A DNA stretch of 64,000 nucleotides from an uncultured Alphaproteobacteria bacterium (GCA_902618385.1 CACNAF010000002.1:30988-94987), one strand, 5' to 3'. Counted from the first letter of the stretch, positions 12,852 to 38,306 are shown. Numbers and translations are program-made. The notes: generated from the letters alone by a model not told the origin.

Positions 12852-12902
12852 GATTATTGAAGCAAATCTTCAATTTTAATATTTAAGATATATATTATTA
12901 TT

Positions 12903-13820: not shown

Positions 13821-13823
13821 TGA

Positions 13824-17983: not shown

Positions 17984-18939
17984 TAATAATGAACCCTCTT
18001 CTCAATGACATATCTTTGGAAAAACGTTAAAACAAGAATAAATCCAATAAAGACAACAGTGATTGCTGCACCGATACTTGTTAAGTTTTGTTGAATAGCT
18101 TTTTCAAAGATTGCATACATCATGACATACGTTGTTTTTGATGGACCACCTTTGGTCAGTATTTCGATTGTATCAAATACTTGAAACGTTCTAATTGTAG
18201 TAATAGTCACAACAAACAACGTTGTTGGACCAAGCATTGGCCATGTAACAAGTTTAAATTGCTCCCATGTAGATTTAGCCCCATCCATTTCTGCAGCTTG
18301 GTATAACTCCCTTGGTATACTTGTTAAGCCAGCTAAATATAAAACCATATTAAAACCAAAAGCCTGCCAAATTCCTATGAAACATACTGTCCAAATCGCA
18401 GTATTTTTTTGTTTTAACCAATATGGAAAATCCATGTTGTTTGCACATGCTACAGCATACCAGCTTTCTTGTGAGTCTACCCATGGCAACCAATGAAAAC
18501 CAAGAATGAATTCCCTAACTCCTCCACACCCATTCGCTAAAAAACTATTTACAATTCCTAATGTTGGATGAAGAGTAAATTCCCATGCAATTGCCATTGC
18601 AAGAAGAGTTGCCATAACTGGAAGAAAAAAAATTGTTTTATATATATCAGCGCCAAACCTTAGTGAGTTTAAAAGCATAGCAGCACATAATCCAAGTACA
18701 ACAGAAATTGGAACGACAACAATAACATACGTCGCTGTGGCCCAAATCATTTTGACATATGTTTTTCGATTGAACATCTTGTCATAATTTTCTAGTCCAA
18801 CCCACTCGAATGTTTTGTTTCCTAAATTGTAGTCAGTAAAAGAAATACCTCCTGCAAGAAAAAGAGGAAAGATTAAAATAATTATCATCAGTATGATTGC
18901 TGGTGCAATAAACCATATGTGAGCTTTTGAATTATGCAT
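17983..18939 (-). CDS. CUT1-family ABC permease (UgpA/MalF-like)
   Basis: 318 aa with an EAA loop (QAAEMDGAKSTWEQFKLVTWP). Its stop overlaps the start of the next permease. Confidence 0.85.
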   Translation of the reverse strand: MHNSKAHIWFIAPAIILMIIILIFPLFLAGGISFTDYNLGNKTFEWVGLENYDKMFNRKTYVKMIWATATYVIVVVPISVVLGLCAAMLLNSLRFGADIYKTIFFLPVMATLLAMAIAWEFTLHPTLGIVNSFLANGCGGVREFILGFHWLPWVDSQESWYAVACANNMDFPYWLKQKNTAIWTVCFIGIWQAFGFNMVLYLAGLTSIPRELYQAAEMDGAKSTWEQFKLVTWPMLGPTTLFVVTITTIRTFQVFDTIEILTKGGPSKTTYVMMYAIFEKAIQQNLTSIGAAITVVFIGFILVLTFFQRYVIEKRVHY

Positions 18940-20065
18940 TAGTAAATTGAACTCTCATTCCTGCTTGATTAAATAGTAATGCTTTATCTGAAACTCTTTT
19001 AATATTCACACTAGAACCGTTTGAAATTTGGTGTGTAAATTGAGGTAAGCCCCTTACAATTATTTTATTTGAACCGTCTTCAATATTTACATGAAAGAAA
19101 ATATCTGAACCTAAATTTTCTCTATATGCAACTATTCCACTAAATGTATTGTCATTACTTTCATTTGTAATTTCTAAATGTTCTGGTCGAATACCAATAT
19201 GTAAATCTGTATTACTTTCAGAACTTTTTCTTTTTAAATTAACGTTGAGAAAACTTACTGTCCCACTTGAGTCCGAAGTTCCTTCAAATATATTTATTTT
19301 TGGACTTCCAACAAACTGAGCCACACTTAATGAGGAAGGATTGTCATATACTTCTTGAGGTGTATCAAGTTGTAATAAATTTCCATCAATCATAACAGCC
19401 ATTCTAGAAGACATAGTTAATGCTTCTGCTTGATCATGTGTAACGTACACAAAAGTAGTTTTAAGTGAATTATGAAGTTCAGATAGTTCAGAACGCATGT
19501 GAACTCTCAAAGCCGCATCTAAATTTGAAAGAGGCTCATCCATTAAAAAGGCAACAGGCTCTCTTACCATAGCACGACCAAGAGCAACTCTTTGTCTTTG
19601 ACCACCTGACAATTGTCCAGGTTTTCTATCTAATAGTTCTGAAATTTTTAAAGTTTCAGAAGTTTTATTTACTAATTGATTTATAGATTCTGTTTTCTCT
19701 TTTTTGCTTGGAGAAAAATTACCAATCAAGGGTAGTCTTTCAAATGCATTATAATCTCTAAGTCTTAATGGAGTTTCTAAATTTCTTCTTACTGTGAGAT
19801 GAGGATAAAGAGCATATGATTGGAATACCATCGCCAAATCTCTTTCACTGGCTCTAACTCTATTTACATTTTTATTATCTATTAATACATCACCCGAAGT
19901 TTGTTGTTCCAATCCTGCAATTATTCTAAGTAATGTAGATTTACCACAACCAGATGGACCAACTAATGTTAAGAATTCTCCATCGTTTATGTCAACATTC
20001 AAATTATTAAGTACTTGTGTAGACCCAAATGACTTTGAAATATTTTTAAGTGATATAGTCCCCAC
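18932..20065 (-). CDS. CUT1-family ABC ATP-binding protein (UgpC/MalK-like)
   Basis: Walker [10 protein letters not shown], signature LSGGQRQRVALGR, Walker B FLMDEPLSNLD, and a C-terminal regulatory domain. GTG start with GGGGGA 6 nt upstream. Confidence 0.88.
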   Translation of the reverse strand: MGTISLKNISKSFGSTQVLNNLNVDINDGEFLTLVGPSGCGKSTLLRIIAGLEQQTSGDVLIDNKNVNRVRASERDLAMVFQSYALYPHLTVRRNLETPLRLRDYNAFERLPLIGNFSPSKKEKTESINQLVNKTSETLKISELLDRKPGQLSGGQRQRVALGRAMVREPVAFLMDEPLSNLDAALRVHMRSELSELHNSLKTTFVYVTHDQAEALTMSSRMAVMIDGNLLQLDTPQEVYDNPSSLSVAQFVGSPKINIFEGTSDSSGTVSFLNVNLKRKSSESNTDLHIGIRPEHLEITNESNDNTFSGIVAYRENLGSDIFFHVNIEDGSNKIIVRGLPQFTHQISNGSSVNIKRVSDKALLFNQAGMRVQFTNA

Positions 20066-20134
20066 TCATTCCCCCTCTATGTTAACTTTAATCTACAAAA
20101 TTTTATTAAATTTGAGAATATTTTAAATCTATTT

Positions 20135-20164
20135 ATTTCAGTTTTATTTCAATTTTATTAACAA
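20135..20164 (-). promoter_or_regulatory. candidate Pho box (three phased heptamers) facing the ugpC-like operon
   Basis: The minus strand reads TTGTTAA-n5-TTGAAAT-AAAA-CTGAAAT. TAAAAT follows 9 nt downstream. The site is about 70 nt upstream of the GTG start. Confidence 0.45.
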
Positions 20165-20241
20165 ATATTCAAATTATCATTGAGTTTAACTAGCAGATAA
20201 CTATAAATTCTTATTTTTAATAATATATATTAGATGAATTT

Positions 20242-21483
20242 GTGTCCGATAACTTAGAAATTAATAAAAGAGAATATCCAAGTAATTTTTCAAAAACTGC
20301 TATTGTGATTTGCCTTGATGGTAGTCAAAAAGAGTATCTCGAAGAAGCATCAAAATCAAATCTTACACCAAACCTTGATAAATTAATTGCAAGTGGTGAA
20401 AACCTACTAGTACACAGCGCTATTCCAAGTTTTACAAATCCAAATAATATTTCGATTGTAACAGGCCAACCAAGTTCTGTTCACGGTATATGCGGGAACT
20501 TCTTTTATACACCCGAGACCGGTGAAGAAGTAATGATGAATGACCCAAAATATATGCGAGCACCAACTATTTTTGAAAAATTTTATAATTCTGGTTCTAA
20601 AATTGCTCTGGTTACTGCAAAAGATAAGCTGAGAACACTTTTAGGAAATGGATTAAGTTTTGATGATGAGAGAGCTATTTGTTTTTCTGCTGAAAAATCT
20701 GATCAAGCAACAAAAGATCTCAATGGTATAGATAATGTAAACGATTGGTTAGGGATGCCAGTGCCAGAAGTATACTCTGAAGAACTTTCTGAATTTGTAA
20801 TGGCTGCAGGTGTAAAGCTTCTTGAAGAGTTCAAACCAAATATCATGTATTTATCGACTACGGATTATATTCAACACAAATATGCGCCAGGAAATGAAAC
20901 AGCAAATAAATTTTATGCAATGTTTGATAAATATATTGGTCTTTTAAATAAGGAGAATGTTTCTATAATTATCACAGCAGATCACGGTATGAAACCAAAA
21001 TCAAAAGAAGATGGTTCACCTAATGCAATATTTTTACAAGATTATTTAGATAAAAAATTTGAACCAAACATGGCTAAAGTTATTCTACCAATTACAGATC
21101 CATATGTTGTGCATCATGGTTCACTTGGTTCTTTTGCAACAATTTATTTAGAAGACAAAAGTAAGATAGATTCAGTTGTAAATGCTATAAAAGAAATAAA
21201 AGATATAGAAGTTGTTTTAACAAAAGACGAAGGATGCTCTACTTATAATTTACCTCCAGATAGAATGGGGGATATTATATGTATGTCTTCAGAATTTATG
21301 ACTATTGGTTCATCAGAAGATAAACACAATCTTTCTGGATTAAATGAACCTTTACGTTCACACGGTGGACTTCATGAAAGAGAAGTGCCATTCATATCAA
21401 ATTTAAAATTACAAAATTTAGATACTAACAAACAATTATATAACTATGATGCATTTTACTATGCAATTAACGGAGCCCTATGA
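20242..21483 (+). CDS. phnA: phosphonoacetate hydrolase
   Basis: Alkaline-phosphatase/NPP superfamily. Nucleophile motif [14 protein letters not shown], plus TADHGM and SHGGLHE. 413 aa with a GTG start. Overlaps the following ALDH by 4 nt, as in characterised phnA-phnY pairs. Confidence 0.82.
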
Positions 21484-22922
21484 TGCACAAAAAAATGATT
21501 AATGAAGCAATGCGTATTGCTGGAGAAAAAGTTACCTCAGATAAAACAATAAATGTTGAGTACCCTTTTACAGGTGAAGTAATCGGAACGGTTCCAGCCG
21601 GTACTGCAGAGCATGCAAGAAAGGCTTTAGATATTGCTGCAAATTACCAACCTAAACTTACAAGATACGAGAGACAAAAAATTCTTCAAACTGCTGCAGA
21701 AGTACTTGTTAAAAGAAAAGAAGAAATTTCTGATATTATTACTTTAGAACTTGGTATCTCAAAACAAGATTCTTTATACGAAGTAGGAAGAGCTTTTGAT
21801 GTCTTTTCATTAACGGCTCAACTTTGTATTCTTGATGATGGAGAAATATTTTCTTGTGATTTAACTCCGCATGGAAAAGCGAGAAAAATATTTACCATAA
21901 GAGAACCTTTAACGGCAATTTCAGCAATCACTCCATTTAATCATCCTTTGAATATGGTAGCGCATAAAATTGCACCTTCAATTGCAACTAATAATTGTAC
22001 TGTATGTAAACAAACAGAATTAACACCCTTAACAGCAATGGTACTTGCTGATGTTTTATATGAAGCAGGTTTACCACCAGAAATGTTTTCAGTTGTAACT
22101 GGATGGCCTCAAGACATTGGATCAGAAATGATCAAAAATCCAAACATTGATCTCATTACTTTTACAGGCAGTGTAGGTGTAGGAAAATTAATTGCTGAAC
22201 AAGCTGGATACAAAAGAACAGTTCTTGAGCTAGGCGGTAATGATCCTTTAATTGTTTTAAACGACTTAGATGGTGATGATCTTAAAAAAGCTGTTGAGCT
22301 AGCTGTTACTGGAGCAACGAAAAACTCTGGTCAACGTTGTACAGCTGTTAAAAGAATACTGGTTCAAGAATCCATTGCAGATCAATTTGTTGAAATGGCT
22401 CTTGAGCGTGCTAAGAAAATTAAATTTGGTGATCCTATGAATATGGAAACAGACTTAGGTACGGTTGTTAATGCTCAAGCTGCAGAACTTTTTGATAAAA
22501 GAGTTTCTATGGCTGAAGAAGACGGTGCAAAAATTTTATATCACCCTGGAAGAAAGGGTGCTTTGTTACCTCCAATAGTTGTAGATCATGTTGATCCTAA
22601 AAGTGAATTAGTTTTAGAAGAAACATTTGGTCCAGTTATCCCAATCATTCGTGTGCCTAATGACGATGAAGCTGTAATGAAAATATCTAATTCAACCGCA
22701 TTTGGATTATCATCTGGTGTATGTACAAATAACTTCATGCGAGCAAAAAAATATATTCAAGGTTTAAATGTTGGAACTGTAAATATTTGGGAGGTTCCAG
22801 GCTATAGAATTGAAATGTCTCCTTTTGGAGGAATTAAAGATTCAGGTCTTGGTTATAAAGAAGGAGTAATTGAAGCAATGAAAAGCTTTACTAATGTAAA
22901 AACTTTCTCGCTACCTTGGTAA
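21480..22922 (+). CDS. phnY: phosphonoacetaldehyde dehydrogenase (NAD-dependent aldehyde dehydrogenase)
   Basis: ALDH motifs ELGGNDP, catalytic Cys in GQRCTAV, and EETFGPV. The call rests on translational coupling to phnA and on phnW nearby. Confidence 0.78.
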
Positions 22923-22977
22923 AAAAACAAGTTTTTCTCTAATTTTTTTATTTCTGTGGAAAAATAAGCTTATTTTT

Positions 22978-23006
22978 TAGTAATATTTTCGTAATAAAAT
23001 TGTAAC
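22978..23006 (+). promoter_or_regulatory. candidate Pho box (three 11-bp-phased heptamers) upstream of the UgpB-like SBP
   Basis: TAGTAAT-ATTT-TCGTAAT-AAAA-TTGTAAC, 53 nt upstream of the ATG. A strong GGGAGG SD sits at 23048-23053. Confidence 0.5.
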
Positions 23007-23058
23007 CCTTTCTAGCTACATGTTAGATTAAATTATTATATTCAATCGGGAGGATTAA

Positions 23059-24312
23059 ATGAAAAAATTAATTACAGGATTGGCAGCCGTATTAGCTTTC
23101 GGTTTTTATGGTTCTGTTAATTCAGCTAAGTCTATTGAAATAGAAGTAGCTTATCCTTATTCAGGATTATTCGATGTAACGTTTCAAGCTATTATGCCAG
23201 AGTTTGAAAAAGCGCATCCAGATATTCAAGTTAAATTTAGAGCAACTTATGAAAACTATGAAGATGCAACTGCAACAATTTTTAGAGAGTCTACTTCAGG
23301 TAACTTACCAGATGTAACGATGCAAGGTCTTAACAGACAAGCACCTCTAGTAGATAAAGGTATTGCAAAGTCTTTAGAGCCATTTATTGCAAAAGAAGCA
23401 GCTTTTGAAAAAGATGGTTACCATTCCGCTATGTTAAGTCTTTCAACATTCGGTGGTGAAGTTTATGGATTACCATTTTCTGTATCAACGCCAGTTGGAT
23501 ATTACAACATGGATCTATTAGCTGAAGCAGGTGTAGATAGTATTCCAACTAACTGGGACGAAGTTATTGCAGCATGTAATAAATTGGAAGCAGCAGGTAA
23601 AGGAACTCTATACTTTGGTTGGAACATCACAGGTAACTGGTTCCACCAAGCATTAATGCATACTCAGAACGTTCCAATGGTTAAAGATGGAGCTGTAAAT
23701 ATGGGTGGTGATGCAGGACTTGCAACGTTAGAGCAAATGAAAGCAATCATGAGTGGATGTAATATGCCAAACTATTCAATTGCTGATGGTCAAGCTGCGT
23801 TTAACGCAGGTACTATTGGTATGATGTTCTGGTCTACTTCAAGCTTGGGTTCAGTTAATGCTGCAAAGGCAGACTTTGTTTTAAAAACTGCACCATTCCC
23901 TGGAATGGCTGGAGTAAACAATGGAACACCAGCAAGATTACCAGCAGGTGGAAACGCTGCAATGTTAGTGTCTACATCTGATGATCCAGCAAGAGTTGAT
24001 GCTGCATGGACTTTCTTAAAGTTCATTACATCAGGTATCGGTGCTGCATTAGTTGCTGAAACAACTGGATATGTTCCACCAAATAAAGCAGCGAATGATT
24101 TATTAGGTGACTTCTATAGTCAAAACCCTAATAAACTTACTGCTGTTGAACAACTTCCACTTCTTGCTGATTGGTTTGCGTATCCTGGAGAAAATGGATT
24201 AGCTGTTACACAGGTAATCTATGATTTCACGGAAGAAATTGCTACAGGTGACGCTGATGATATGGCAGATCTTCAAGAAGAAATGATGGAAGAAATAAAC
24301 GATCTTATGTAA
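23059..24312 (+). CDS. family-1 extracellular solute-binding protein, UgpB-like (glycerophosphoryl or organophosphorus ligand inferred)
   Basis: Signal peptide. Colinear with E. coli UgpB as I recall it (HPDIQVKF..YENYED, FSVSTPVGYYNMDLLAEAG, TGYVPPNKAA). It has its own strong SD and terminator. Confidence 0.75.
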   Translation: MKKLITGLAAVLAFGFYGSVNSAKSIEIEVAYPYSGLFDVTFQAIMPEFEKAHPDIQVKFRATYENYEDATATIFRESTSGNLPDVTMQGLNRQAPLVDKGIAKSLEPFIAKEAAFEKDGYHSAMLSLSTFGGEVYGLPFSVSTPVGYYNMDLLAEAGVDSIPTNWDEVIAACNKLEAAGKGTLYFGWNITGNWFHQALMHTQNVPMVKDGAVNMGGDAGLATLEQMKAIMSGCNMPNYSIADGQAAFNAGTIGMMFWSTSSLGSVNAAKADFVLKTAPFPGMAGVNNGTPARLPAGGNAAMLVSTSDDPARVDAAWTFLKFITSGIGAALVAETTGYVPPNKAANDLLGDFYSQNPNKLTAVEQLPLLADWFAYPGENGLAVTQVIYDFTEEIATGDADDMADLQEEMMEEINDLM

Positions 24313-24342
24313 TTTGAGATTATTTATTATTAACTTTTTATT

Positions 24343-24375
24343 ACAGCGGCTTTATAAAAGCCGCTGTTTTATTTT
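24343..24375 (+). terminator. rho-independent terminator or attenuator after the SBP gene
   Basis: ACAGCGGCTTT-ata-AAAGCCGCTGT (11-bp stem) followed by TTTATTTT. Confidence 0.8.
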
Positions 24376-24399
24376 AAATTTAAATGGGAGTAAAAATAG

Positions 24400-25479
24400 A
24401 TGCCTCTTACAACAACTACAATAGGTGCTTATCCAAAACCTAAACAAACACCCATTCAAGATTGGTTTTTAGGGACAAAATCAGAAGAAGAGAGAAAAGC
24501 ATCAAAAGGATTATTATCAAATTGGTCACCTGGCGCATATGAAAAAGCATTAGAGTCTGCAGGTGCGGATGCTGAAAAATTATTTTTAGCAGCAATTAAA
24601 GAAGTTATAACTGATCAAGTGAGTGCGGGTATTGATGTTCCAACAGATGGGGAAGTTAGGCGTGAGAGTTATGTATTATATCAATGTCGATTTTTAAATG
24701 GTGTAAGTTTTAAGGAAGTTACACATAAGTCAGTAAGACAGGGTGCGTTCGAAGCTGACCTTCCAACTATTGTTGCACCAATTTCAAGTAAAGAAATACG
24801 TATGCATTTAGACTGGAAGAGTGCACAACAATTTACAAAAAACCCAGTTAAAATTACGCTACCTGGACCAATGACAATTACAGATTCAATTGCCAACAAT
24901 TACTATGATGACATGAAAAAACTTGGTTTTGATTTAGCATTAGCCCTCAATAAAGAAGTTAAAGCACTTGTAGATGCAGGTTGTCAGTATATTCAAATTG
25001 ATGAACCAGTATTTGCTAGAAAGCCCGATGAAGCTCATTCTTACGGTATGGAAAATTTAGAAAGAATGATGCATGGTATTCCTAAAGAAGTGCAACGCGT
25101 TTGCCATATCTGTTGTGGTTATCCTAACTCATTAGATTCAGAAGGGTATAAAAAGGCTGATCTAGATGCTTATGATAGAATTGCATCACTTGTAGATGAT
25201 TCAACTATTGATGAAGTATCTTTAGAAGATTCACATAGGCATAATGATTTAAATCTTTTAGAAAAATTTACTAAAACAAAAGTAATTTTTGGATTTATTG
25301 ATATTGCAAAAAGTAGAATGGAGTCTGTTGAAGAGGTAAGAGTTCGTATCAAAGATTCACTTGAACATATTGATGAACACCGCTTAATAGCTGCACCAGA
25401 TTGTGGTTTAGGTTTCTTTACACGAGAACAAGCAATTGAGAAAATGACAATTTTAACTAAAGCGGCAAAATCAATTTAA
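24400..25479 (+). CDS. core-MetE-like protein: cobalamin-independent methionine synthase catalytic domain only (Zn-dependent thiol alkyltransferase)
   Basis: 359 aa. TTTIGAYPKP, PTDGEVRRE and YIQIDEPVF match the MetE C-terminal domain. Zn ligands are present: H-x-C in VCHICCGY, E in VSLEDS, C in APDCGLGF. There is no N-terminal folate-tail domain. Confidence 0.8.
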   Translation: MPLTTTTIGAYPKPKQTPIQDWFLGTKSEEERKASKGLLSNWSPGAYEKALESAGADAEKLFLAAIKEVITDQVSAGIDVPTDGEVRRESYVLYQCRFLNGVSFKEVTHKSVRQGAFEADLPTIVAPISSKEIRMHLDWKSAQQFTKNPVKITLPGPMTITDSIANNYYDDMKKLGFDLALALNKEVKALVDAGCQYIQIDEPVFARKPDEAHSYGMENLERMMHGIPKEVQRVCHICCGYPNSLDSEGYKKADLDAYDRIASLVDDSTIDEVSLEDSHRHNDLNLLEKFTKTKVIFGFIDIAKSRMESVEEVRVRIKDSLEHIDEHRLIAAPDCGLGFFTREQAIEKMTILTKAAKSI

Positions 25480-25483
25480 TGTA

Positions 25484-26596
25484 ATGTGGAATTATTTTAA
25501 TCCTGTTGAAATTATCTTTGGAGAAAATAGATTTAAAGAAGTACATGATGCTCTTAAAAATAAGAACTACATCATAATCACTCATCCAGAAGAAATTTTT
25601 AAAAAATATAGCGATGAATTAAAATCTTCTTCAAATCCACCACTATCCATTATGACGGATGTTCAGCCTAATCCAGATTATAAGGATATTTTAGAGCTAC
25701 AAAAAAAATTTTCTTCAATCAATGAATCGGTAGATTATATTTTAGCTATAGGTGGTGGCTCTGTTACAGACACAGCTAAAGCAATTGCTGCATTTAAAGA
25801 TAAACAAGAATATCTGACAGATTTCGTTCGCAATAAGAAAAGTCCAAGAGTCGAAAATCCAATCAAGATTATTGCAATACCTACAACTTCAGGAACATCA
25901 AGTGAGCTTACGTGTTGGGCCACAATTTGGGATAAAGAAAAAAACAATAAATTATCTTTGGCGCATAAATCTCTTTATGCAGAAAAAACAATTATCGATC
26001 CATCTATTATGGTTGATAAGCCTTTAGGCTTGACCATTTCAACTGGTTTAGATGCTCTCTCCCATTCAATGGAAAGTATTTGGAATATTAATGCAAATCC
26101 AGTTTCTGCTTCTCATGCAATACAAGCATCAAAATTAGTATTAGAAAATTTACCACTTCTCACTAAAGATTTAAGAAGTGTTGAATTACGCTCAAACATT
26201 GCATTGGCGTGTGTTCATGCTGGTTTAGCGTTTTCCAATACGAAAACTGCTATTGCGCACAATCTATCATACCCTGTGACACTCAATTACGGTATTCAGC
26301 ATGGTATTGCTTGTTCATTTACTTTACCCATGATTACTAAAAGTATGGTTGGAATTGATAGTGTCGCTGAAGAAAGACTAAAGTTAATTTTTAACGATAA
26401 CCTTGAAAATGCCGCAAATCATCTGAGTGAATTTATGCGTTCTTTAGAGGTTCCTCTTAACTTAAATGAAATAAAAGTTCCTGTTCAAGAATGGAATAAT
26501 ATAGTAGATGATGCGTTTTTAGGGGAACGAGGTAAAAACTTTATTGGCAATAAAGAAGCCTTTATCTCTTCTGCTAAATCAATGGGACTTTATTAG
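25484..26596 (+). CDS. iron-containing (group III) alcohol dehydrogenase; candidate phosphonoacetaldehyde / 2-hydroxyethylphosphonate oxidoreductase
   Basis: GGGSVTDTAKAIA, PTTSGTSSELT, and metal His motifs LSHSMES and IAHNLSYPV...HGIAC. 370 aa. The substrate is inferred only from context. Confidence 0.75.
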   Translation: MWNYFNPVEIIFGENRFKEVHDALKNKNYIIITHPEEIFKKYSDELKSSSNPPLSIMTDVQPNPDYKDILELQKKFSSINESVDYILAIGGGSVTDTAKAIAAFKDKQEYLTDFVRNKKSPRVENPIKIIAIPTTSGTSSELTCWATIWDKEKNNKLSLAHKSLYAEKTIIDPSIMVDKPLGLTISTGLDALSHSMESIWNINANPVSASHAIQASKLVLENLPLLTKDLRSVELRSNIALACVHAGLAFSNTKTAIAHNLSYPVTLNYGIQHGIACSFTLPMITKSMVGIDSVAEERLKLIFNDNLENAANHLSEFMRSLEVPLNLNEIKVPVQEWNNIVDDAFLGERGKNFIGNKEAFISSAKSMGLY

Positions 26597-26598
26597 TA

Positions 26599-27705
26599 AT
26601 GAAAAAAAATTTCAGGTTTTATGATAACAGACAAAAATACTTGCTATTTGTCACAACAACAAATGAAAAAAATCAAATTGCTGATGCTATACGCCCTCAC
26701 GTAAATAAAATTAAACCTCAAAAACCTGGCATAAAAATATTTGATGCTGGTATGGGTGATGGTTCCTTACTTATGAATGTTATGCGTCAGTGCCACGAGG
26801 CTGAGCCTAACGTACCTTTATTAGTTTGCACAAAAGAAATAAGCATAGAAGATGTAAGATTAGGTTTAGAAAAGTTACCCGATAGGTTTGTTGAGCATAA
26901 GAATACCGTTTTTGTCATTTCAAATCTACACTACGCGGAAGCCGCAAACCTAAAATCAAAAAATGAAGTTAAACAGAAAAAAATTAATTGGAATATTATT
27001 AAATTAAAAGGAGATACCTCTCTTGAATTTGCCCAACAATTAAGAGAACAAAATGAATTTCTAGAAAAAAAATGGAATATAGAAATTAATAAAAAATCAG
27101 GTAACCATACTTATAAAGAGCCTTCAGTCATGGTTATCTACCGCGAAGATCAAGAATTTAATGTTAATGAATTAATACCTACCAAAAAAAAATCAGATAA
27201 TAAATTTGATCTTATTATTGCTTCACAGCCTTATCGTTCAAGAATTTCAGCAGAAAAGAAATCAAAATACGTCATCGAACCAATGATTCGAGCGTTAAAA
27301 TCAAAAGGGAAATTATTAACTATTCATGCTTCAGGAAAAGATCCTGCTAATGAAATAATTCGTAAAATTTGGCCAAAAGAGAACCCATTTCCTTCTCTTG
27401 GAAATAGTATCATTTCTTATCTTAAGAAAAATTTAGATAAAGATCTATTAAGTAGTTTATCGTTTGGAGAAAAAAGAATTATTAAATGTAAATTGAGAGC
27501 TCTACCAACAGAAATCAGTGGAGGTATAGCGACATCATTAGTTTTTTCTGCTTGGAATGCGTCCATATATGTCAATCAAATGGATGATGATCAAGTAATG
27601 AAGGTAGAAAAAACAAGAAATTATGAAAAAGTAGTCCAGAAAATAGTTTCAAAAAATAAAGGCCTTTATTTTAACAATGAAATATTTGTAATCGAAAAAA
27701 AATAA
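26599..27705 (+). CDS. class I SAM-dependent methyltransferase-like protein with a large internal insertion, function unknown
   Basis: Motif I IKIFDAGMGDGSLL, acidic post-I residue in CTKEIS. After about 120 aa come motif II FDLIIASQPY and motif III LKSKGKLLTI. 368 aa. Confidence 0.55.
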   Translation: MKKNFRFYDNRQKYLLFVTTTNEKNQIADAIRPHVNKIKPQKPGIKIFDAGMGDGSLLMNVMRQCHEAEPNVPLLVCTKEISIEDVRLGLEKLPDRFVEHKNTVFVISNLHYAEAANLKSKNEVKQKKINWNIIKLKGDTSLEFAQQLREQNEFLEKKWNIEINKKSGNHTYKEPSVMVIYREDQEFNVNELIPTKKKSDNKFDLIIASQPYRSRISAEKKSKYVIEPMIRALKSKGKLLTIHASGKDPANEIIRKIWPKENPFPSLGNSIISYLKKNLDKDLLSSLSFGEKRIIKCKLRALPTEISGGIATSLVFSAWNASIYVNQMDDDQVMKVEKTRNYEKVVQKIVSKNKGLYFNNEIFVIEKK

Positions 27706-27709
27706 TTTT

Positions 27710-28498
27710 TTATTTAAACCAATTAACTTCTGTTTTTAAAAAATCCTCTGTATGAATAATTAATGCGTCAGATCGAATTATTGCAACATTATAATTTGTA
27801 TCTGTATTTGCCGTTCCTAAACGATATTCATTTGAAAAGTTAGGTATTAGAGGAGACCAAGTACTTCTTGGGGAGGAAAAAGTAATACCACAATAAGAGC
27901 CAGAACTTGTAATGTGTTGATGACCAAAAAAAATATGTTTTATTATCTTATTATTTTTCGTTAAAATTTGTTGAAACTCTTTTTTTTGTTGTAATCCTAT
28001 TCCATCACTTTCCTCTTTTACTAATGCCAGTGGATTATGATGCATAAAGATGTACGTATCCGTATTAGTCTTACTTAAAATATTATTTAACCATTCTTGC
28101 CTCTCTTCACAATAATGTCCTTGGTGAGTGTTAATCAGATTAGTATCTATAAAAATTAAACGTTTATTATCTATATCCTTAAAGTATTGAATAAATCCAT
28201 TTGGATCGGTTTCAATATTAGGAAAGTTTATTTTAAATTCATCTCTGTTATCATGATTACCTATAATTAGTTGAGGATTTAAATTCTTCGGCAGACCTGC
28301 TTCATCAATTATTTTTAAAAATAACTGATAAGAATCTTTATCACCTAAGTCTGTAATATCACCTGTGATGGCAAATAAATCTGCATCACCATGATTATTT
28401 TTTATATGAGTTAATGCTTTTTTAAATTTACTGACAGGATCTATGCCATGAATCTTATCTATATAAATATGAGGGTCTGAAAGGTGAATAATTTTCAT
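27710..28498 (-). CDS. metallophosphoesterase, GpdQ/CpdA-like phosphodiesterase
   Basis: All calcineurin-like motifs are present: HLSDPH, TGDITDLG, GNHDNR, FMHHNP, GHQH. Colinear with Enterobacter GpdQ as I recall it. 262 aa. Confidence 0.8.
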   Translation of the reverse strand: MKIIHLSDPHIYIDKIHGIDPVSKFKKALTHIKNNHGDADLFAITGDITDLGDKDSYQLFLKIIDEAGLPKNLNPQLIIGNHDNRDEFKINFPNIETDPNGFIQYFKDIDNKRLIFIDTNLINTHQGHYCEERQEWLNNILSKTNTDTYIFMHHNPLALVKEESDGIGLQQKKEFQQILTKNNKIIKHIFFGHQHITSSGSYCGITFSSPRSTWSPLIPNFSNEYRLGTANTDTNYNVAIIRSDALIIHTEDFLKTEVNWFK

Positions 28499-28518
28499 TA
28501 TTAAATATAAATTTATAA

Positions 28519-29151
28519 TTAAATCGCAGTTTTAAAATAAATATACTTATTAAATTCTTCTTTTAAGTCGATGCTAACTCTTGCATGTACTTTACCTTGT
28601 TTTCCTTGAAACGATTGTTTTTCTGTAACTGGAAACACCCCTTCATGCCAAATATTTGGATGAATATACAAACCTTTTGATCCGTCACAATAAAATGCTT
28701 TAAAATGTTCTGGTTCAATGTCGTCTGTAGGTAAGGCTAAAGGACAAATAAATGGTTTATTTTCTGTAGGAAAAAAAAGCTGACCTCCATCAGGATGATA
28801 ATTTGCATGCCATAAAAAAATTTTTGTTGGATCTGAATATTTATCTTTTTGTAATTCTTGATCAGGATTATTGGCATAACCCAGTATATATTTTCCATCT
28901 ACTTCATAATCGCTCTTATGTTGGACAGCATTATTTTGTCCATAAAGCACGTCACCTTGCCACCAGGTATCAAAAGAACCTTCGGTAGTTCCACCTTCAT
29001 TACCAGTTCCCTCTTCTATGTCACGCCATCCTTGTTTTGGCCAAGTAACAATTTCAATATCACTATTTTCAAAACTATCGATTAAATACCCGTATCCTTT
29101 AAGATTTTCATTTGTTGCTTTAACTAAAGGTATTTCAATTTCTTTTGTCAT
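28519..29151 (-). CDS. ureidoglycolate-lyase (AllA)-like beta-barrel protein, function unknown
   Basis: Colinear with E. coli AllA as I recall it: LKGYGYLID vs FSAYGDVIE, ANYHPDGGQLFFP vs ERHPLGTQAFIP, GLYIHPNIWHEGVF vs GVNYHRNVWHHPLF. It carries about 50 extra residues. Confidence 0.6.
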   Translation of the reverse strand: MTKEIEIPLVKATNENLKGYGYLIDSFENSDIEIVTWPKQGWRDIEEGTGNEGGTTEGSFDTWWQGDVLYGQNNAVQHKSDYEVDGKYILGYANNPDQELQKDKYSDPTKIFLWHANYHPDGGQLFFPTENKPFICPLALPTDDIEPEHFKAFYCDGSKGLYIHPNIWHEGVFPVTEKQSFQGKQGKVHARVSIDLKEEFNKYIYFKTAI

Positions 29152-29158
29152 TTTTTTG

Positions 29159-30256
29159 TTAGTTTAATGTTAATCCCAACTCAGTAACAACTTCTTTTAC
29201 AGCTTTTATTGTATCCATCATGTCTTGTTCATTTAAATTACCAATACACCCAATTCTAAAAGTTTCTGCCACTGTTAGTTTTCCTGGATAAATTAAAAAA
29301 TCTTTTTCACTAAGAGCATTATAAAATTTATCAAAGTTAAATTTAGGATCATTAGGATGTTTAAAAGTAATAATAATTGGTGCTTGTAAATTATCAGGAA
29401 GTAGTTGCTCAAATCCCAACTCTTTCATTCCATTACAAATAATTTCACAATTTTTTTTATATCTTTTACCTCTTCCCTCTACACCGCCTTGTTCTTTATG
29501 TTCCTCAATCGCTTGGTTGAATGCAGCCAATACGTGTGTTGGAGGTGTAAATCGCCATTGTTTATTTTTTTCCATTGCTTGCCATTGATCATACAAGTCT
29601 AGACTTAGTGAGTGACTATTGCCTTTTGCATTTTGAATAACTTCATTTTTAACAAGAATGAAACCAACACCTGGCACACCTTCTAAGCATTTGTTTGATG
29701 AAGCGGCTACAGCATCAAAAGTAATTGTTTTAGAACTTAAGGGTAATGCACCAAAGGCACTCATTGCATCGATGAATAACGATAAGTTTTTCCCTTCAAC
29801 CAATTTTGCAATCTCTTCAATAGGATTTAAAATACCCGATGTTGTTTCACAATATACAGCAAAGACGTGTGTTAAGTTGTTGCTATCAATTAACTCTTCA
29901 ATTTTATTGATGTCATGTACTTCATGTTCAGCAACTTCATATTCAATAAAATCTCTCCCTAAATAAGTGCACATTTTTTTCATTCTTTGTCCGTAAGCAC
30001 CATTGATCAGAATCAGAATTTTAGAATCTTTTTGAGTAAGAGAGCTCACCATTGACTCTACAGCAAAAGTTCCACTTCCCTGCATTGGAACACATTGATA
30101 TTTATCTTCACCGTCTATTAATTTAACAAGGGAATCTCTAATTGATGCATTGAGATCAATAAATTTTGTATCTCTCGAACCCCAATCATGAAGCATAGCC
30201 TCTTTTGTTGACATCGATGTCGTGAGAGGACCAGGGGTTAATAATTTTTTATCCAT
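29159..30256 (-). CDS. phnW: 2-aminoethylphosphonate--pyruvate transaminase
   Basis: Class V aminotransferase. LLTPGPLTTS N-terminus and HDWGSRDTKF, as in characterised PhnW. 365 aa. Confidence 0.85.
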   Translation of the reverse strand: MDKKLLTPGPLTTSMSTKEAMLHDWGSRDTKFIDLNASIRDSLVKLIDGEDKYQCVPMQGSGTFAVESMVSSLTQKDSKILILINGAYGQRMKKMCTYLGRDFIEYEVAEHEVHDINKIEELIDSNNLTHVFAVYCETTSGILNPIEEIAKLVEGKNLSLFIDAMSAFGALPLSSKTITFDAVAASSNKCLEGVPGVGFILVKNEVIQNAKGNSHSLSLDLYDQWQAMEKNKQWRFTPPTHVLAAFNQAIEEHKEQGGVEGRGKRYKKNCEIICNGMKELGFEQLLPDNLQAPIIITFKHPNDPKFNFDKFYNALSEKDFLIYPGKLTVAETFRIGCIGNLNEQDMMDTIKAVKEVVTELGLTLN

Positions 30257-30344
30257 TAAATATTTACTTAATAAATATTATTATAAATTTGATCAATCTT
30301 ATTAAAGTTGGAATTGAATTTATTTTCTAATAAGTTAATTATAA

Positions 30345-30920
30345 ATGAGAATGGAAGAAAATATCGTAGATTATCTCTTAGATCTTTTGAAAACAAAAGG
30401 TGCTGATATTCAATATGGTAATGAGGATGTGACTCAGCTTGAGCACGCACTCCAATGTGCTGAACTTGCTGAAAAACATAAATTACCAGGACCAACAATT
30501 GCTGCAGCATTACTGCATGATGTTGGCCACCTTATTTATGAGGACGGCGATCCCATTCATGAAGGGAAAGATGGTCATCATGAAAACTTAGGTGCTGATT
30601 TTTTAAAAAAATATTTTGGTGAAGATGTTATTTTACCAATTAGAGCACATGTTGATTCAAAAAGATATTTATCAAGTGTTGAAGAAGGTTATTATGATAG
30701 TCTATCAGAAGCATCGAAACTTTCGTTAAAAGTTCAAGGCGGTCCTTTCACAAAAGAAGAAGCAGATGCGTTTATCAGCAAACCTTTTATGGATGAGGCA
30801 GTAGAGCTTAGAAGATTTGATGATCTAGCAAAAATTCTAGATAAAAAAACTCCCGATGTTGAACATTTTCGCCCCTATTTAGAAGAAGCAAGACAGTCTT
30901 TTTTAGCTAAACAAGCGTAA
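30345..30920 (+). CDS. phnZ: HD-domain diiron oxygenase PhnZ family (C-P cleaving; 1-hydroxy-2-aminoethylphosphonate dioxygenase-like)
   Basis: QLEHALQCA, AALLHDVGH, HHENLGADFL, AHVDSKRYL and LSEASKLSLKVQGGPF are colinear with characterised PhnZ as I recall it. 191 aa. Confidence 0.8.
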   Translation: MRMEENIVDYLLDLLKTKGADIQYGNEDVTQLEHALQCAELAEKHKLPGPTIAAALLHDVGHLIYEDGDPIHEGKDGHHENLGADFLKKYFGEDVILPIRAHVDSKRYLSSVEEGYYDSLSEASKLSLKVQGGPFTKEEADAFISKPFMDEAVELRRFDDLAKILDKKTPDVEHFRPYLEEARQSFLAKQA

Positions 30921-31445
30921 ATGCAATTTAGCAATTATGATTTTATTGACTCTAAGTCATTTGCAGGAAAAATTATATTAACTTCTTTTCCAGGTCTTAA
31001 CTCTAATGGTTTATTTGAAGAAACAATTTTAGCAAACGAATTAGAAATGTTTAAAAATAATAATTGTAGTTCTATTACTTCTTTTGTTGAAGATAGCGAA
31101 TTTGAAAAATTGTGTGATAAAACTTTGTTTGTCAAAAGTATTTATAAACATAAATTACATTGGTACCATTTACCCATTTATGACATGGGAGCACCAGATA
31201 AAGATTTTAAATATAAATGGGAAACAACAAAAGTTTTATTAAAGAACGAATTGATAGATGGTAAAAATATAGTCTTACATTGTCGTGGAGGAAAAGGAAG
31301 AGCTGGCACTATAGCTGCTATTTTACTTGTTGAATTTAATTATGAAAAACAAGAAGCTATTGATCTTGTACGATCAAGAAGAAAAGGAGCTATTGAATCT
31401 AAAATACAGAAAGATTTTATTTTTTCTTATCGAGCAGTTAATTAA
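30921..31445 (+). CDS. cysteine-dependent (dual-specificity/CDKN3-like) phosphatase
   Basis: P-loop HCRGGKGRAGT (HCX5R-S/T). 174 aa. The ATG directly abuts the phnZ stop. Confidence 0.75.
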   Translation: MQFSNYDFIDSKSFAGKIILTSFPGLNSNGLFEETILANELEMFKNNNCSSITSFVEDSEFEKLCDKTLFVKSIYKHKLHWYHLPIYDMGAPDKDFKYKWETTKVLLKNELIDGKNIVLHCRGGKGRAGTIAAILLVEFNYEKQEAIDLVRSRRKGAIESKIQKDFIFSYRAVN

Positions 31446-32494
31446 AAAGAGACCGTTAAATTAAAAATATTTTCTAGAATAAATAAAACAATTAAAGAAA
31501 TTAAAGCTGCAATTATAGGTAGCGTCATCCAACCCAAAGAAATTCTACCCGCAATTGACCATTGAACCTCTTTTCCTCCTTTTAAAAGACCAATTCCAAT
31601 TACGCCGCCAACAACAGCTTGGGAACTTGATACTGGTACCAAAGGTATAGAGGGAAGATTTATAGATTGTAAAAAAGCACTTATGCCCTGGGATGCAAAT
31701 AAAAATAAAACAATAGAATGCGATATAACAACAATAAATGCTGCCACTGGTGTCATTTTTAAGAGATCATTACCCACGGTAAACATAACTCTTTTCGAGT
31801 AGGTAAAAACACCAACAGCTATGGCTAAACCACCCAGCAGAAATAGTTGTTCTTTTGAGGAAAAGACAAATAAATTTCCAATAGTAACATCAGTAAACGG
31901 TGATATAGGTACGAAGACACCCATTACATTGGCAATATTGTTTGCACCTAAACTATAAGCACCAAAAGCACCGGCTAAAAGTAAAGCTGTTCTTGTATAG
32001 GCATCAAGTCTGAGAATATGTAACTTTCTATTGAGTATAACTCTTTTTGTAAAAGTAAATAAACCCATTGCAATAACTCCTGCAATAATAGGACAGAGTA
32101 TCCATGTTCCTAAAATAGTAATTAAAACTTGAAGATTAGTTGAAGATCCCGTGTATAAATTCCAACCAACAATTGCTCCAACAATCGCTTGCGTTGTAGA
32201 AACAGGCAAGCCAACTTTGGTCATTAAATAAACGGATATGCCTGCAGCCACACATGCTGCAAAGGCACCAGGTAATGCATTAATAGCACCTAACTTACCT
32301 AAAGTTTCTGTTGTTCCTGCTCCACTAATAATTGCACCTAGAATAACAAAGACACTACAAATTATTGCTGCACTTGTGAAACTAACCATTCGCGTCCCAA
32401 CAGCAGTTCCAAAAACATTTGCTGCATCATTGGCGCCAAGTGACCAACCTAAAAAAAGACCACCAAATAAAAAAATCAGAATTGTAATTTCCAT
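31442..32494 (-). CDS. inorganic phosphate transporter, PiT (PHO4) family
   Basis: Duplicated GANDAANVFG and GANNIANVMG signature. About 10 TM segments. 350 aa. Confidence 0.88.
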   Translation of the reverse strand: MEITILIFLFGGLFLGWSLGANDAANVFGTAVGTRMVSFTSAAIICSVFVILGAIISGAGTTETLGKLGAINALPGAFAACVAAGISVYLMTKVGLPVSTTQAIVGAIVGWNLYTGSSTNLQVLITILGTWILCPIIAGVIAMGLFTFTKRVILNRKLHILRLDAYTRTALLLAGAFGAYSLGANNIANVMGVFVPISPFTDVTIGNLFVFSSKEQLFLLGGLAIAVGVFTYSKRVMFTVGNDLLKMTPVAAFIVVISHSIVLFLFASQGISAFLQSINLPSIPLVPVSSSQAVVGGVIGIGLLKGGKEVQWSIAGRISLGWMTLPIIAALISLIVLFILENIFNLTVSF

Positions 32495-32500
32495 TGAAAA

Positions 32501-33163
32501 TTAAACGGAGCGTTTAATAGCGTAAATTTGAACCTCGTCAGCTATGTCTTCTGCTTGATCACAAATACGATCAATCTTCTCTACAAAATATCGAAGATGC
32601 ATTTTTTGATCTAGAGGTAATTCAGAATCAAAAATTCTTCTTGCAAGTGCACTAAATTTTATATCAGATTCTTTTTCATAAAAAGTTACTTTATGAGCAT
32701 TATCTCTAACAGATTTAATATCTCTAAAAAATGATCTTACAGTTAAACATAATGATTCAACACAATTTACAACAGTCTCTGTTAACTCAATAAGATCTTC
32801 ATGAAATTCTTTTGGAAAATTAGGTTTTTGAATAGAGAAGTGATAGCAATTTCCTTGGTACATTCCAATTAATTCGTCGATGTGTTCTAGAAGTCGTAAC
32901 ACATCACTTCTTGCATCTGGGATTAGTGTTTCTTCATAAAGAGTATGCTCAACATCTTTCGTAATTTTGTCGGCCTTACTTTCCATTTCTTTAACTTTTT
33001 CAACCATTTCCTCAAATTTACCATTGGCGGAATGATTGAGATAAGTTGGAACTATCGATTTAAATACTAAGCCCACTTCAGAGACAATATCAACAAACTC
33101 ATCAATTTCTCTTTCAAGCTTTTTGGTATCACCAAATAATGATGCACTTTTTAATCCAAACAT
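32501..33163 (-). CDS. DUF47 / PhoU_div family protein (PiT-associated regulator)
   Basis: 220 aa, helical. Conserved position immediately upstream of pit. Confidence 0.8.
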   Translation of the reverse strand: MFGLKSASLFGDTKKLEREIDEFVDIVSEVGLVFKSIVPTYLNHSANGKFEEMVEKVKEMESKADKITKDVEHTLYEETLIPDARSDVLRLLEHIDELIGMYQGNCYHFSIQKPNFPKEFHEDLIELTETVVNCVESLCLTVRSFFRDIKSVRDNAHKVTFYEKESDIKFSALARRIFDSELPLDQKMHLRYFVEKIDRICDQAEDIADEVQIYAIKRSV

Positions 33164-33200
33164 GGCGTGCTTATAGAACTTTTTAAAAAAAAAGAAAGAA

Positions 33201-33218
33201 ATGTTAAATTTTTGTTAC
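33201..33218 (+). promoter_or_regulatory. candidate Pho box upstream of the small membrane protein and arsC
   Basis: ATGTTAA-ATTT-TTGTTAC, then TAATAT 8 nt downstream. Confidence 0.4.
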
Positions 33219-33286
33219 AATTTGATTAATATCTTTATCTTTAAGTAAAGTGTAATATTCGCAATCTATAGAATTTAGGAGAAGAT

Positions 33287-33514
33287 ATGACAGATTTATC
33301 AATTAATAGAATTAAGTGGTTTAGCACCGCGTTAATTTTATCAGGAATATTATTAACCAATTTAAATGCGTATCCAATTAACATAATTATTCACGGTACA
33401 GGTGCTGTTGGTTGGTCAATTGTTGGTTATATGACAAAAGATAGAGCTCTGCTCACAAACTTTGGTTTACAACTCCCACTATTTATTTTTGGATATATTT
33501 ATTTGCTGACATGA
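33287..33514 (+). CDS. small 3-TM membrane protein, unknown function
   Basis: 75 aa with three hydrophobic helices. AGGAG lies 6 nt upstream. Its stop overlaps the arsC start (ATGA). Confidence 0.55.
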   Translation: MTDLSINRIKWFSTALILSGILLTNLNAYPINIIIHGTGAVGWSIVGYMTKDRALLTNFGLQLPLFIFGYIYLLT

Positions 33515-33930
33515 AAAATAAAAATATTCTTTTTATGTGTGTTGCTAATTCAGCAAGAAGTCAAATGGCTGAAGGAATTGCAAAAAAATTATATCCTAAT
33601 TGTATTATTCAAAGTGCAGGATCAGTGCCCAAAGAAGTTAATCCCAATGCTATCGAGGTTATGGGTGAAATCGATATTGATATATCAAAACATTATTCAA
33701 AAGATTTTGAAAGTTTAGACAAAAAATTTAGAGATGAATTAAATACCGTTTTTACGCTTTGTAAAGAAGAGGTATGTCCAGTTTTAAATTCCAAAGCTCA
33801 GATATTTTCAATACCATTTGATGATCCAGCATCAGATCATTTTAGTTCAAACCAATTAAATAAATTTAGAGAAGTAAGAGACTCAATTTTTATTAAATTG
33901 AAAGAACTAAAAAATTTATTTGAAAACTAA
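33511..33930 (+). CDS. arsC: arsenate reductase, LMW-PTP (thioredoxin-coupled) type
   Basis: CVANSARS (CX5R) P-loop, TLCKEEVCP Cys pair, and FDDPA. Confidence 0.82.
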   Translation: MKNKNILFMCVANSARSQMAEGIAKKLYPNCIIQSAGSVPKEVNPNAIEVMGEIDIDISKHYSKDFESLDKKFRDELNTVFTLCKEEVCPVLNSKAQIFSIPFDDPASDHFSSNQLNKFREVRDSIFIKLKELKNLFEN

Positions 33931-34070
33931 TAAGTTTAAATATTAGTTTAATTTATAAAAATTTAATATTCTATTAATACGTCTGTAAAAAATAAAATTT
34001 AAATACTTTTTACCACTCACAGTATTATTTCTTCCTGCTTATGTCCAATTATTGTGAGTGGGATTAAATT

Positions 34071-36176: not shown

Positions 36177-36236
36177 AATTTTTTTTTATATTTTTTAGGT
36201 ATAAAAAAAACATGTTCATAAAAAATTCATATTTCT

Positions 36237-36695: not shown

Positions 36696-36727
36696 TCGAG
36701 TTTAATACTTTAGATGTATACATTTCC

Positions 36728-38286: not shown

Positions 38287-38306
38287 TATAAAATTACCTT
38301 AAATAA

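Follow-up and report, generated by a model that had tools for sequence, protein, structure and literature searches.

A 64,000-nucleotide stretch of DNA from an uncultured Alphaproteobacteria bacterium (GCA_902618385.1 CACNAF010000002.1:30988-94987; the whole stretch is called the window below) carries three plus-strand genes encoding a protein that resembles the catalytic core of methionine synthase (core-MetE), an iron-dependent alcohol dehydrogenase (ADH) and a methyltransferase. We tentatively favour the view that this trio is a composite, in which a homocysteine-dependent methyl-transfer step and an enzyme of the S-adenosylmethionine (SAM) cycle would be coupled to phosphonate scavenging. 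For core-MetE, the type of chemistry and the genomic association appear well supported by sequence comparison. The neighbourhood of the trio is a phosphorus-acquisition and scavenging island (Table 1). Its nearest relatives, at 95-100% identity, are single-cell genomes that carry the label uncultured Alphaproteobacteria or Pelagibacteraceae, and these labels indicate that the host belongs to SAR11 (Pelagibacterales). Homologous loci that were compared with the window are numbered L001, L002 and so on.

Core-MetE matched PF01717 (Meth_synt_2; 121.6 bits, residues 53-357) and consists of the MetE catalytic domain only. Canonical MetE, a protein of ~750 aa with an N-terminal folate-binding domain, was ruled out, since the 359 aa of core-MetE correspond to the C-terminal part alone. 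The match to TIGR01371 covered positions 457-750 only (91.8 bits, cut-off 930), and the NCBIfam methionine-synthase models gave 194 bits, far under their cut-offs. The nearest solved structure was 3RPD (154 bits), the MesD protein of Shewanella, for which roles of the Zn and homocysteine residues have been described (Price 2021, PMC7857596). In an alignment of the clade down to 54% identity, the Zn ligands H236, C238, E276 and C335 were invariant, as were the homocysteine ligands E85 and D201 and the MesD-specific tyrosine Y241. Among the homocysteine ligands of 3RPD (Ser22, Glu73, Asp188 and Tyr226), the serine position is alanine in the window protein and either serine or alanine within the clade. 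We read core-MetE as a predicted Zn-dependent homocysteine S-methyltransferase. The invariance of the residues that bind the amino-acid moiety of homocysteine led us to set aside thiol alkylation of the epoxyalkane:coenzyme M transferase kind.

Core-MetE and MesD share a single-domain MetE core, the His/Cys/Glu/Cys Zn site, the MesD-specific tyrosine and the Glu/Asp ligands of homocysteine; both occur in aerobic bacteria. We would nevertheless class core-MetE as MesD-like and not as MesD proper, because its similarity lies far under the threshold of the MesD authors (154 bits to 3RPD, as against at least 390 bits or ~55% identity, a value that refers to another reference, ACIAD3523) and because no DUF1852 (MesX) gene adjoined it in the window or was reported in any Pfam-annotated neighbourhood fetched. 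Where MesD is partnered by MesX, core-MetE is accompanied by a UgpB-like ABC transporter, a diesterase and phosphonate genes. SAR11 is said to lack both MetE and MetH and to depend on Bhmt, and core-MetE homologues in marine aerobes have been described as being of questionable function (Mausz 2025, PMC12478193).

Comparison of SAR11 islands separated five forms. The first (window, L001, L003-L009, L011) has the order PhnA-PhnY-SBP-core-MetE-ADH-methyltransferase, where SBP is the substrate-binding protein of the transporter. The second (L088, L116) is the same without the methyltransferase, and in the third (L099) core-MetE and ADH are followed directly by the convergent unit that contains phnW. 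In the fourth (L002) the order is PhnA-PhnY-ADH-methyltransferase-PF02574, with the transporter and a GDPD gene elsewhere in the island. The fifth (L010, L012) is reduced to PhnA-PhnY-methyltransferase, with neither a transporter nor a homocysteine methyltransferase nor an ADH. Thus the ADH and the transporter come and go together with a homocysteine methyltransferase, whichever of the two families it belongs to. The order core-MetE then ADH was constant across SAR11, and the methyltransferase was absent from L088, L099 and L116. Core-MetE is an accessory gene within SAR11, not a housekeeping one.

The PF02574 gene that occupies the place of core-MetE in L002 belongs to the family of BHMT and MmuM, which is unrelated to core-MetE and differs in details of fold; its product scored at most 74 bits against every NCBIfam model, far under the cut-offs. 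Both families share Zn-thiolate homocysteine methylation with an activated non-folate donor, a property that is predicted for core-MetE. The idea of coupling methionine formation to the removal of a methyl group from an imported metabolite is shared with MtgBCDE, the split methionine synthase/glycine-betaine demethylase of marine bacteria, a system that is cobalamin-dependent and absent from Pelagibacteraceae (Mausz 2025, PMC12478193).

Outside SAR11, 91 loci with core-MetE collapsed to 52 clusters at 90% identity, ~30 of which were informative. A UgpB-like SBP or transporter adjoined core-MetE in 13 of the 52, and in 9 clusters it lay directly upstream, at 73-197 nt. Metallophos genes stood directly beside core-MetE in three clusters (in L092 both Metallophos and transporter genes were adjacent), and PhnA and/or PhnY were found within 8 kb in seven. 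Three unrelated classes of alcohol dehydrogenase occurred beside core-MetE: the PhpC type in SAR11, a PbfG-type Zn-ADH in L094, L132 and L135 (top family TIGR03366) and a HIBADH type in L139 and L146. In the PbfG-type enzymes the spacing C-x-S-x8-R-x9-H equals that of Cys45/Ser47/Arg56/His66 in PbfG. Genuine PhnY (~790 bits) and PhnA accompanied clusters of core-MetE and ADH in unrelated lineages. We conclude from these sequence comparisons that the core-MetE clade is probably tied functionally to the transporter and to catabolism of 2-hydroxyethylphosphonate (HEP)-type phosphonates. In a literature search, no core-MetE or homocysteine methyltransferase was found reported in phosphonate clusters.

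Some of these clusters held further genes. In L146, another class-I methyltransferase (2242-3084, minus strand; PF08241, 81 bits) is divergent from a transporter/core-MetE/HIBADH/PhnD/PhnA/PhnY cluster, so that a methyltransferase of some kind recurs near the transporter/core-MetE module. L094 carries a split thiamine-diphosphate decarboxylase resembling sulfopyruvate or phosphonopyruvate decarboxylase (1310-2441, plus strand) together with a TctA transporter gene, upstream of Aldh-MetK-core-MetE; these face a convergent PbfG-like ADH and PhnA. In L092, the core-MetE/diesterase/transporter module is flanked by MTHFR and DUF5981 on one side (1-636) and by a URO-D/B12-binding fusion on the other (12976-13080), flanks that recall the MtgBCD genes for the cobalamin-dependent betaine demethylase/methionine synthase.

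The second gene of the trio could be assigned to a known enzyme. Beyond PF00465 and PF25137, the ADH matched TIGR03405, the family of phosphonate-associated Fe-ADHs, at 361.9 bits, 2.3 times the score of the next-best model (156.6); this is under the cut-off of 423.7 bits of a model built mainly on other lineages. D190, H194, H259 and H273 correspond to the PhpC metal ligands Asp191, His195, His260 and His274, and K156, R349, T255 and Y263 to Lys157, Arg349, Thr256 and Tyr264 of the PhpC phosphonate clamp. The metal and clamp residues were invariant across 115 homologues, and a 97%-identical protein is named 'phosphonoacetaldehyde reductase' at NCBI. PhnA-PhnY lie 2.6 kb upstream of the ADH in the window and directly adjoin it in the sister islands L002 and L089. 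Degradative PhpC oxidises HEP to phosphonoacetaldehyde, feeding either PhnX or PhnY-PhnA; this oxidation was assayed only in the P. fungorum homologue, and the roles of the HEP-binding residues come from an AlphaFold3 model, in which Tyr264 is PhpC-specific and replaced by Phe in sulfoacetaldehyde reductases (Piazza 2026, PMC13576164).

These data support assignment of the ADH as a PhpC-type HEP dehydrogenase/phosphonoacetaldehyde reductase (EC 1.1.1.309 family). An earlier reading made from the sequence alone (the sequence-only reading) had proposed that the ADH oxidises HEP for PhnY and PhnA; the TIGR03405 match, the PhpC residues and the NCBI name bear this out. The role itself is already published: phpC inside phnWAY clusters was noted with a proposal in 2022 (Lockwood 2022, PMC9381506) and enzymology followed in 2026, so that nothing in the ADH is new. 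As in other PhpC systems, the gene clusters with phnY-phnA. It differs in scoring below the trusted cut-off, in having phnW in the same cluster, a rarer arrangement according to Piazza et al. (PMC13576164), and in that the ADH is always preceded by core-MetE in the SAR11 lineage of the window.

A biosynthetic role would run this chemistry in reverse: PhnW and the ADH would work reductively, from 2-aminoethylphosphonate (AEP) through phosphonoacetaldehyde to HEP, with the methyltransferase decorating the phosphonate and core-MetE supplying methionine and SAM. Indeed, phnW and phpC have been proposed to make HEP from scavenged AEP (Lockwood 2022, PMC9381506), the equilibrium between HEP and phosphonoacetaldehyde lies towards HEP, and the phosphonate methyltransferase HvrF was among the generic fold matches of the methyltransferase. 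However, PhnY and PhnA, which would pull the aldehyde towards phosphate release, are constant neighbours; pepM, mpnS and transferase genes are absent, and the methyltransferase occurs in SAR11 lineages with no phosphonate genes nearby. We regard biosynthetic repurposing as highly improbable.

The third protein has no close named relative. Its single Pfam match reached 19.5 bits (cut-off 27), and no match above threshold was obtained in Pfam, none in NCBIfam and none in PDB at E ≤ 1. The AlphaFold2 model (predicted local distance difference test 90.9) is a Rossmann fold with a ~90-residue insertion between strands 3 and 4, and it matched 177 PDB methyltransferase chains at E ≤ 1e-3. Human HNMT was the top match (E 5e-11, TM 0.48/0.60, 12% identity); both have a lid domain inserted into the Rossmann fold as well as a conserved SAM motif I, and the window protein differs in having no family match at the sequence level. 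Conserved residues comprised DAGxGDG, K79-E80, N109 and D204..Q210-P211. In the closer homologues (36-69% identity to the window), the Gly-rich SAM motif I (DAGMGDG, 49-55) and K79-E80, with the acidic residue that follows strand 2, were conserved, whereas across the full set, in which identity falls to 27%, G53 and K79 alone were nearly invariant; the genome scan used nine closer sequences, a broader alignment of 18 having no conserved block. The family is small, numbering 777 representatives out of 1.84 billion at E ≤ 1e-3, some with an extra N-terminal extension of ~100 residues. Sequence and model together point to a class-I SAM-dependent methyltransferase of an unnamed family with an HNMT-like fold. 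It did not fall into a named subfamily (HNMT, GNMT, DhpI or MmtN, among others), the likeness to HNMT being one of fold only.

The neighbours of the methyltransferase place it by the methyl cycle. Depending on the SAR11 subclade, the gene follows metY and an alpha/beta hydrolase gene, is divergent from fhs, or lies in the phosphorus island. Among 48 loci outside SAR11, a weak MTHFR-like gene lay immediately downstream in 17, MetK within about 2 kb in 14, AhcY within 8 kb in 11 and a MetE-like gene within 8 kb in 20; any of MTHFR-like, MetK, AhcY, MetE-like, PfkB or Fhs was within 8 kb in 39. A MetE-like gene stood 51-113 nt upstream in six Steroidobacteraceae-type loci, a PF02574 gene adjoins the methyltransferase in L002, and a 40%-identical methyltransferase heads a transporter/core-MetE operon with HIBADH, PhnY and PhnA in one lineage outside SAR11 (L137, L142, L139). 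This family therefore keeps company with methyl-cycle genes and is repeatedly linked to homocysteine methyltransferases. The operon-head position and the MetE-like neighbours in 20/48 loci weaken the idea that the methyltransferase is purely a bystander. In the window and in L013, L017, L045, L083 and L086, the regions upstream of core-MetE, metY or the methyltransferase were searched for riboswitches sensing SAM or cobalamin; a single tRNA was the only hit above the Rfam gathering thresholds.

Two arrangements of this family were seen repeatedly. In L045, L048, L054 and L069 (~8000-14000), the methyltransferase heads an operon continuing with a weak MTHFR-like gene, MetK, an adenosine-kinase-like PfkB, AhcY and Fhs; just past it, the opposite strand carries a MetE-like gene. 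The Steroidobacteraceae-type loci (L038, L043, L047, L063, L066, L074; ~8000) have a block of TonB receptor, VOC protein, MetE-like protein, HNMT-like methyltransferase and intradiol dioxygenase, with a second MetE-like gene 4-5 kb upstream; this block may be a homocysteine-dependent aryl-O-demethylation route.

In the composite that we favour, the ADH would oxidise HEP to phosphonoacetaldehyde, as sequence and the published enzymology of a homologue suggest. PhnY would then form phosphonoacetate and PhnA would release acetate and phosphate, the ADH providing an entry parallel to PhnW. Core-MetE, which sequence and context place in an accessory cassette with the UgpB-like ABC transporter and the GpdQ-like diesterase, would transfer a methyl group from an imported organophosphorus compound, or from a head group released by the diesterase, to homocysteine to give methionine. 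Among candidate donors we would rank an onium-type (quaternary ammonium) head group first and a methyl ester or ether of HEP second. The HNMT-like methyltransferase would consume SAM and so, together with MetK and AhcY, turn methionine back into homocysteine, allowing the acceptor to be used catalytically; its neighbourhoods suggest this role of homocysteine-regenerating methyl sink.

The layout of the locus had been read correctly in most respects. The list of open reading frames (ORFs) confirmed three plus-strand genes with gaps of 4 nt between core-MetE and ADH (25480-25483) and 2 nt between ADH and methyltransferase (26597-26598), and the family calls (PF01717; PF00465 with PF25137; a weak class-I methyltransferase match) were also confirmed. 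The distance of 4 nt (27706-27709) to the convergent operon was correct as well, but the operon's terminal gene encodes a GpdQ-like phosphoesterase (27710-28498, minus strand) and phnW lies two genes further. As had been claimed, the trio starts 24 nt past a hairpin and T-run that follow the SBP stop at 24312. The stem spans 24343-24367 and is followed by TTTATTTT, and this was the top-ranked terminator-like site across 20000-30500. The same scan detected no plus-strand terminator-like site inside the trio (24400-27705). From the shared strand and this internal negative, we predict that the co-oriented trio is probably co-transcribed. A stem-loop just past the SBP stop was kept, with changed sequence, in L088, L122, L130, L134, L136, L139, L143, L146, L153 and L162, and it persists where core-MetE identity is only 54-72%. 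That it is retained despite differing sequence suggests that a transcript end or attenuator is under selection there.

Table 1. Features of the trio and its surroundings in the window.
Feature	Position	Strand	Remarks
CUT1-type ABC transporter, two permeases and ATPase	17090-20065	-	divergent from phnA
phnA (phosphonoacetate hydrolase) and phnY (phosphonoacetaldehyde dehydrogenase)	20242-22922	+	TIGR02335, TIGR03250
CUT1/UgpB-like substrate-binding protein (SBP)	23059-24312	+	PF01547/PF13416; conserved upstream neighbour of core-MetE
Stem-loop and T-run, resembling an intrinsic terminator or attenuator	24343-24375	+	11-bp stem, 6 G-C; directly 3' of the SBP gene
Core-MetE ORF	24400-25479	+	359 aa, ATG start
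ADH ORF	25484-26596	+	370 aa, ATG start
Methyltransferase ORF	26599-27705	+	368 aa, ATG start
Convergent unit: GpdQ-like Metallophos diesterase, PF04115-like protein, phnW	27710-30256	-	profile matches
PF04115-like protein	28519-29151	-	210 aa; weak ureidoglycolate-lyase-like match
HD-domain protein	30345-30920	+	PhnZ/TmpB-like
Rest of island	31442-40110		see text

Several observations weigh against the composite. With ~31% G+C and ~97% coding content, the window is densely packed throughout: same-strand neighbours are separated by a median of 5 nt (5 nt or less in 24 of 48 pairs), and gaps of 4 nt or less separate 7 of the 8 convergent pairs. Tight packing is the norm here and means no more than chance; because the median gap is 5 nt, the spacing of the trio alone is uninformative on operon membership or function. 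Among clusters of at least 57% identity with adequate upstream flank, the transporter was directly upstream in 6/10, and the remaining core-MetE genes stood alone or by SSADH/glutathione reductase or a TRAP transporter (L083, L086, L111, L123, L126). Most clusters at 52-56% identity showed none of these neighbours, these being high-GC relatives that a simple ORF caller could not annotate reliably. Most SAR11 carry the methyltransferase by metY or fhs, and the island copies form one clade that is sister to the others (neighbour-joining, no support values), the pattern that vertical inheritance of a gene simply lying in the island would produce. The methyltransferase is also dispensable in cis, given the close relatives (L088, L116, L099) with core-MetE and ADH and without it. 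Finally, we know of no naturally occurring methylated precursor of HEP, and both the methyl donor of core-MetE and the acceptor of the methyltransferase are guesses.

The main rival builds on these points. It holds that core-MetE and the methyltransferase are ordinary methionine/SAM-cycle bystanders in a dense island and that only the ADH is linked to phosphonates. Apart from the packing and the monophyly of the island methyltransferases, it is consistent with the company of this gene elsewhere (metY or fhs in other SAR11; MetK, AhcY, PfkB and Fhs beyond), with MetK directly upstream of core-MetE in L094-L096, with MetK-AhcY-PfkB 3.5 kb away in L088 and with the solitary core-MetE orthologues. 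Yet sister islands lack core-MetE, whose presence tracks that of the transporter and the ADH; its adjacency to the SBP gene, with the conserved hairpin, recurs down to 54% identity; a non-homologous PF02574 gene replaces it in L002; and PhnA/PhnY and three ADH classes recur beside it. The core-MetE data thus argue against bystanders, which we consider unlikely, and the methyltransferase data do so only partly. The sequence-only reading had also offered a methionine/SAM-cycle module unrelated to phosphorus. This holds for the methyltransferase, which nearly everywhere else is a methionine/SAM-cycle neighbour and was found with methionine or one-carbon genes in places where phosphorus genes are lacking; it fails for core-MetE and the ADH, which are accessory and co-vary with the transporter.

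The nature of the transporter bears on the imported compound. The SBP scored 65.7 bits only against the UgpB model (cut-off 411), and its relatives in PDB are sugar-binding proteins and UgpB, which score equally well. AepX, a binder of 2-AEP, was ruled out, since AepX belongs to PF13343 and the SBP to PF01547/PF13416; by sequence the SBP appears to be neither AepX nor PhnD. UgpC was the top match of the ATPase (386 bits), and the homologous genes in L001 are two BPD_transp_1 and one ABC_tran. The Metallophos protein has the phosphohydrolase entries 2DXL, 2ZO9 and 3D03 as its nearest PDB relatives, which we take to be GpdQ. The island thus shares a CUT1-type SBP, two permeases, a UgpC-like ATPase, presumably a GpdQ-like enzyme and, in L002, a GDPD with the use of glycerophosphodiesters by UgpBAEC and GpdQ/GDPD, and differs in the weak UgpB score of its SBP and in being embedded in phosphonate clusters.

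This likeness raises a glycerophosphocholine-type route, in which the transporter would import a choline phosphodiester, the GpdQ-like enzyme or GDPD would split it, choline would be converted to glycine betaine, and core-MetE or the PF02574 protein would act like BHMT on betaine or choline, the phosphonate genes being mere phosphorus-stress neighbours. In line with it, the GDPD gene follows the transporter in L002, a BCCT transporter abuts core-MetE in L092/L129, and a second aldehyde dehydrogenase recurs beside core-MetE, with BADH as top family (439-541 bits, below cut-off). The reported dependence of SAR11 on Bhmt in place of MetE/MetH (PMC12478193) would also fit. Against this, the linked dehydrogenases belong to two HEP-dehydrogenase families with an anionic-phosphonate clamp (K156/R349/Y263; Arg at Cys+11), residues unsuited to cationic choline, and the clusters of unrelated lineages contain genuine PhnY and PhnA. 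We judge this route quite unlikely as a whole; choline-type donors stay among the candidates, given the GDPD, BCCT and BADH-like neighbours.

Alternatively, core-MetE could move the N-methyl groups of N-methylated AEP to homocysteine, after which PhnW would transaminate the product, as the sequence-only reading had suggested. The displacement of core-MetE by a BHMT-family gene in L002, the PhnZ/TmpB-like HD oxygenase in the same island and the combination of PhnW-PhnA-PhnY, transporter and core-MetE without an ADH in L153/L155 are compatible with this. By contrast, L134/L139, L143-L147 and L094 have core-MetE, ADH, PhnY and PhnA and no PhnW within 8-17 kb. To our knowledge, quaternary amines are the only established donors of BHMT-kind Zn-thiolate methyltransferases, so that full demethylation to AEP would need extra chemistry. 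Because several clusters have an ADH but no PhnW, N-methyl-AEP is disfavoured as a general donor and improbable overall. What survives of the suggestion is its general logic, with the Zn and homocysteine ligands, the PF02574 replacement and the company of transporter and phosphonate genes in its favour; the particular donor does not, with no PhnW in view.

The composite can be carried a step further, to a proposal that we put forward only as a long shot. The core-MetE clade would be a phosphonate 'breakdown factor', a homocysteine-dependent demethylase of a methylated organophosphonate or head group delivered by the transporter. Its products would be methionine and a demethylated compound that enters the HEP-dehydrogenase/PhnY/PhnA route. 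The HNMT-like family would regenerate homocysteine, possibly passing the methyl group to folate-linked C1 oxidation through the MTHFR-like and Fhs neighbours of the methyltransferase.

The remaining genes of the island are related to phosphorus or phosphonates. PhnA (470 bits to TIGR02335) and PhnY (797 bits to TIGR03250) both exceeded their cut-offs, and PhnW reached 510 bits against NF010006. The PF04115-like gene was paired with phnW in every SAR11 island examined. The HD-domain protein scored 201 bits against the phosphonate-degradation HD oxygenase model TIGR03276 (cut-off 214.6) and 157 bits against TmpB; no Fe/2-oxoglutarate hydroxylase of the PhnY*/TmpA type adjoins it. The rest of the island holds PHO4 and PhoU_div, LMW-PTP/ArsC-like, polyphosphate kinase, Ppx and MIP channel genes and a glycosyltransferase and Metallophos pair, the last presumably like the Agt/PlcP genes with which SAR11 remodels its lipids under phosphate starvation.

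Among the ways in which phosphorus is regenerated in the ocean, hydrolytic phosphonate catabolism is a major one, and no carrier of it is more abundant than SAR11. The assignment of the ADH places the published HEP entry point in SAR11 islands. Two associations appear to be undescribed: a MesD-like homocysteine methyltransferase by an ABC transporter, a diesterase, PhnA/PhnY and three interchangeable ADH classes, and an unnamed methyltransferase family linked to MetE-like and SAM-cycle genes. They bear on the methyl donor of folate-independent core methionine synthases in aerobes, on which esterified or methylated phosphonates marine bacteria take up, and on homocysteine recycling in SAR11 cells that resemble methionine auxotrophs. 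All three proteins of the trio are small and soluble, so that these ideas are directly testable in vitro. Were core-MetE a breakdown factor, some members of SAR11, which is said to lack MetE/MetH, would gain a phosphorus-linked route to methionine, and a physiological methyl donor for a MesD-type enzyme would be named.

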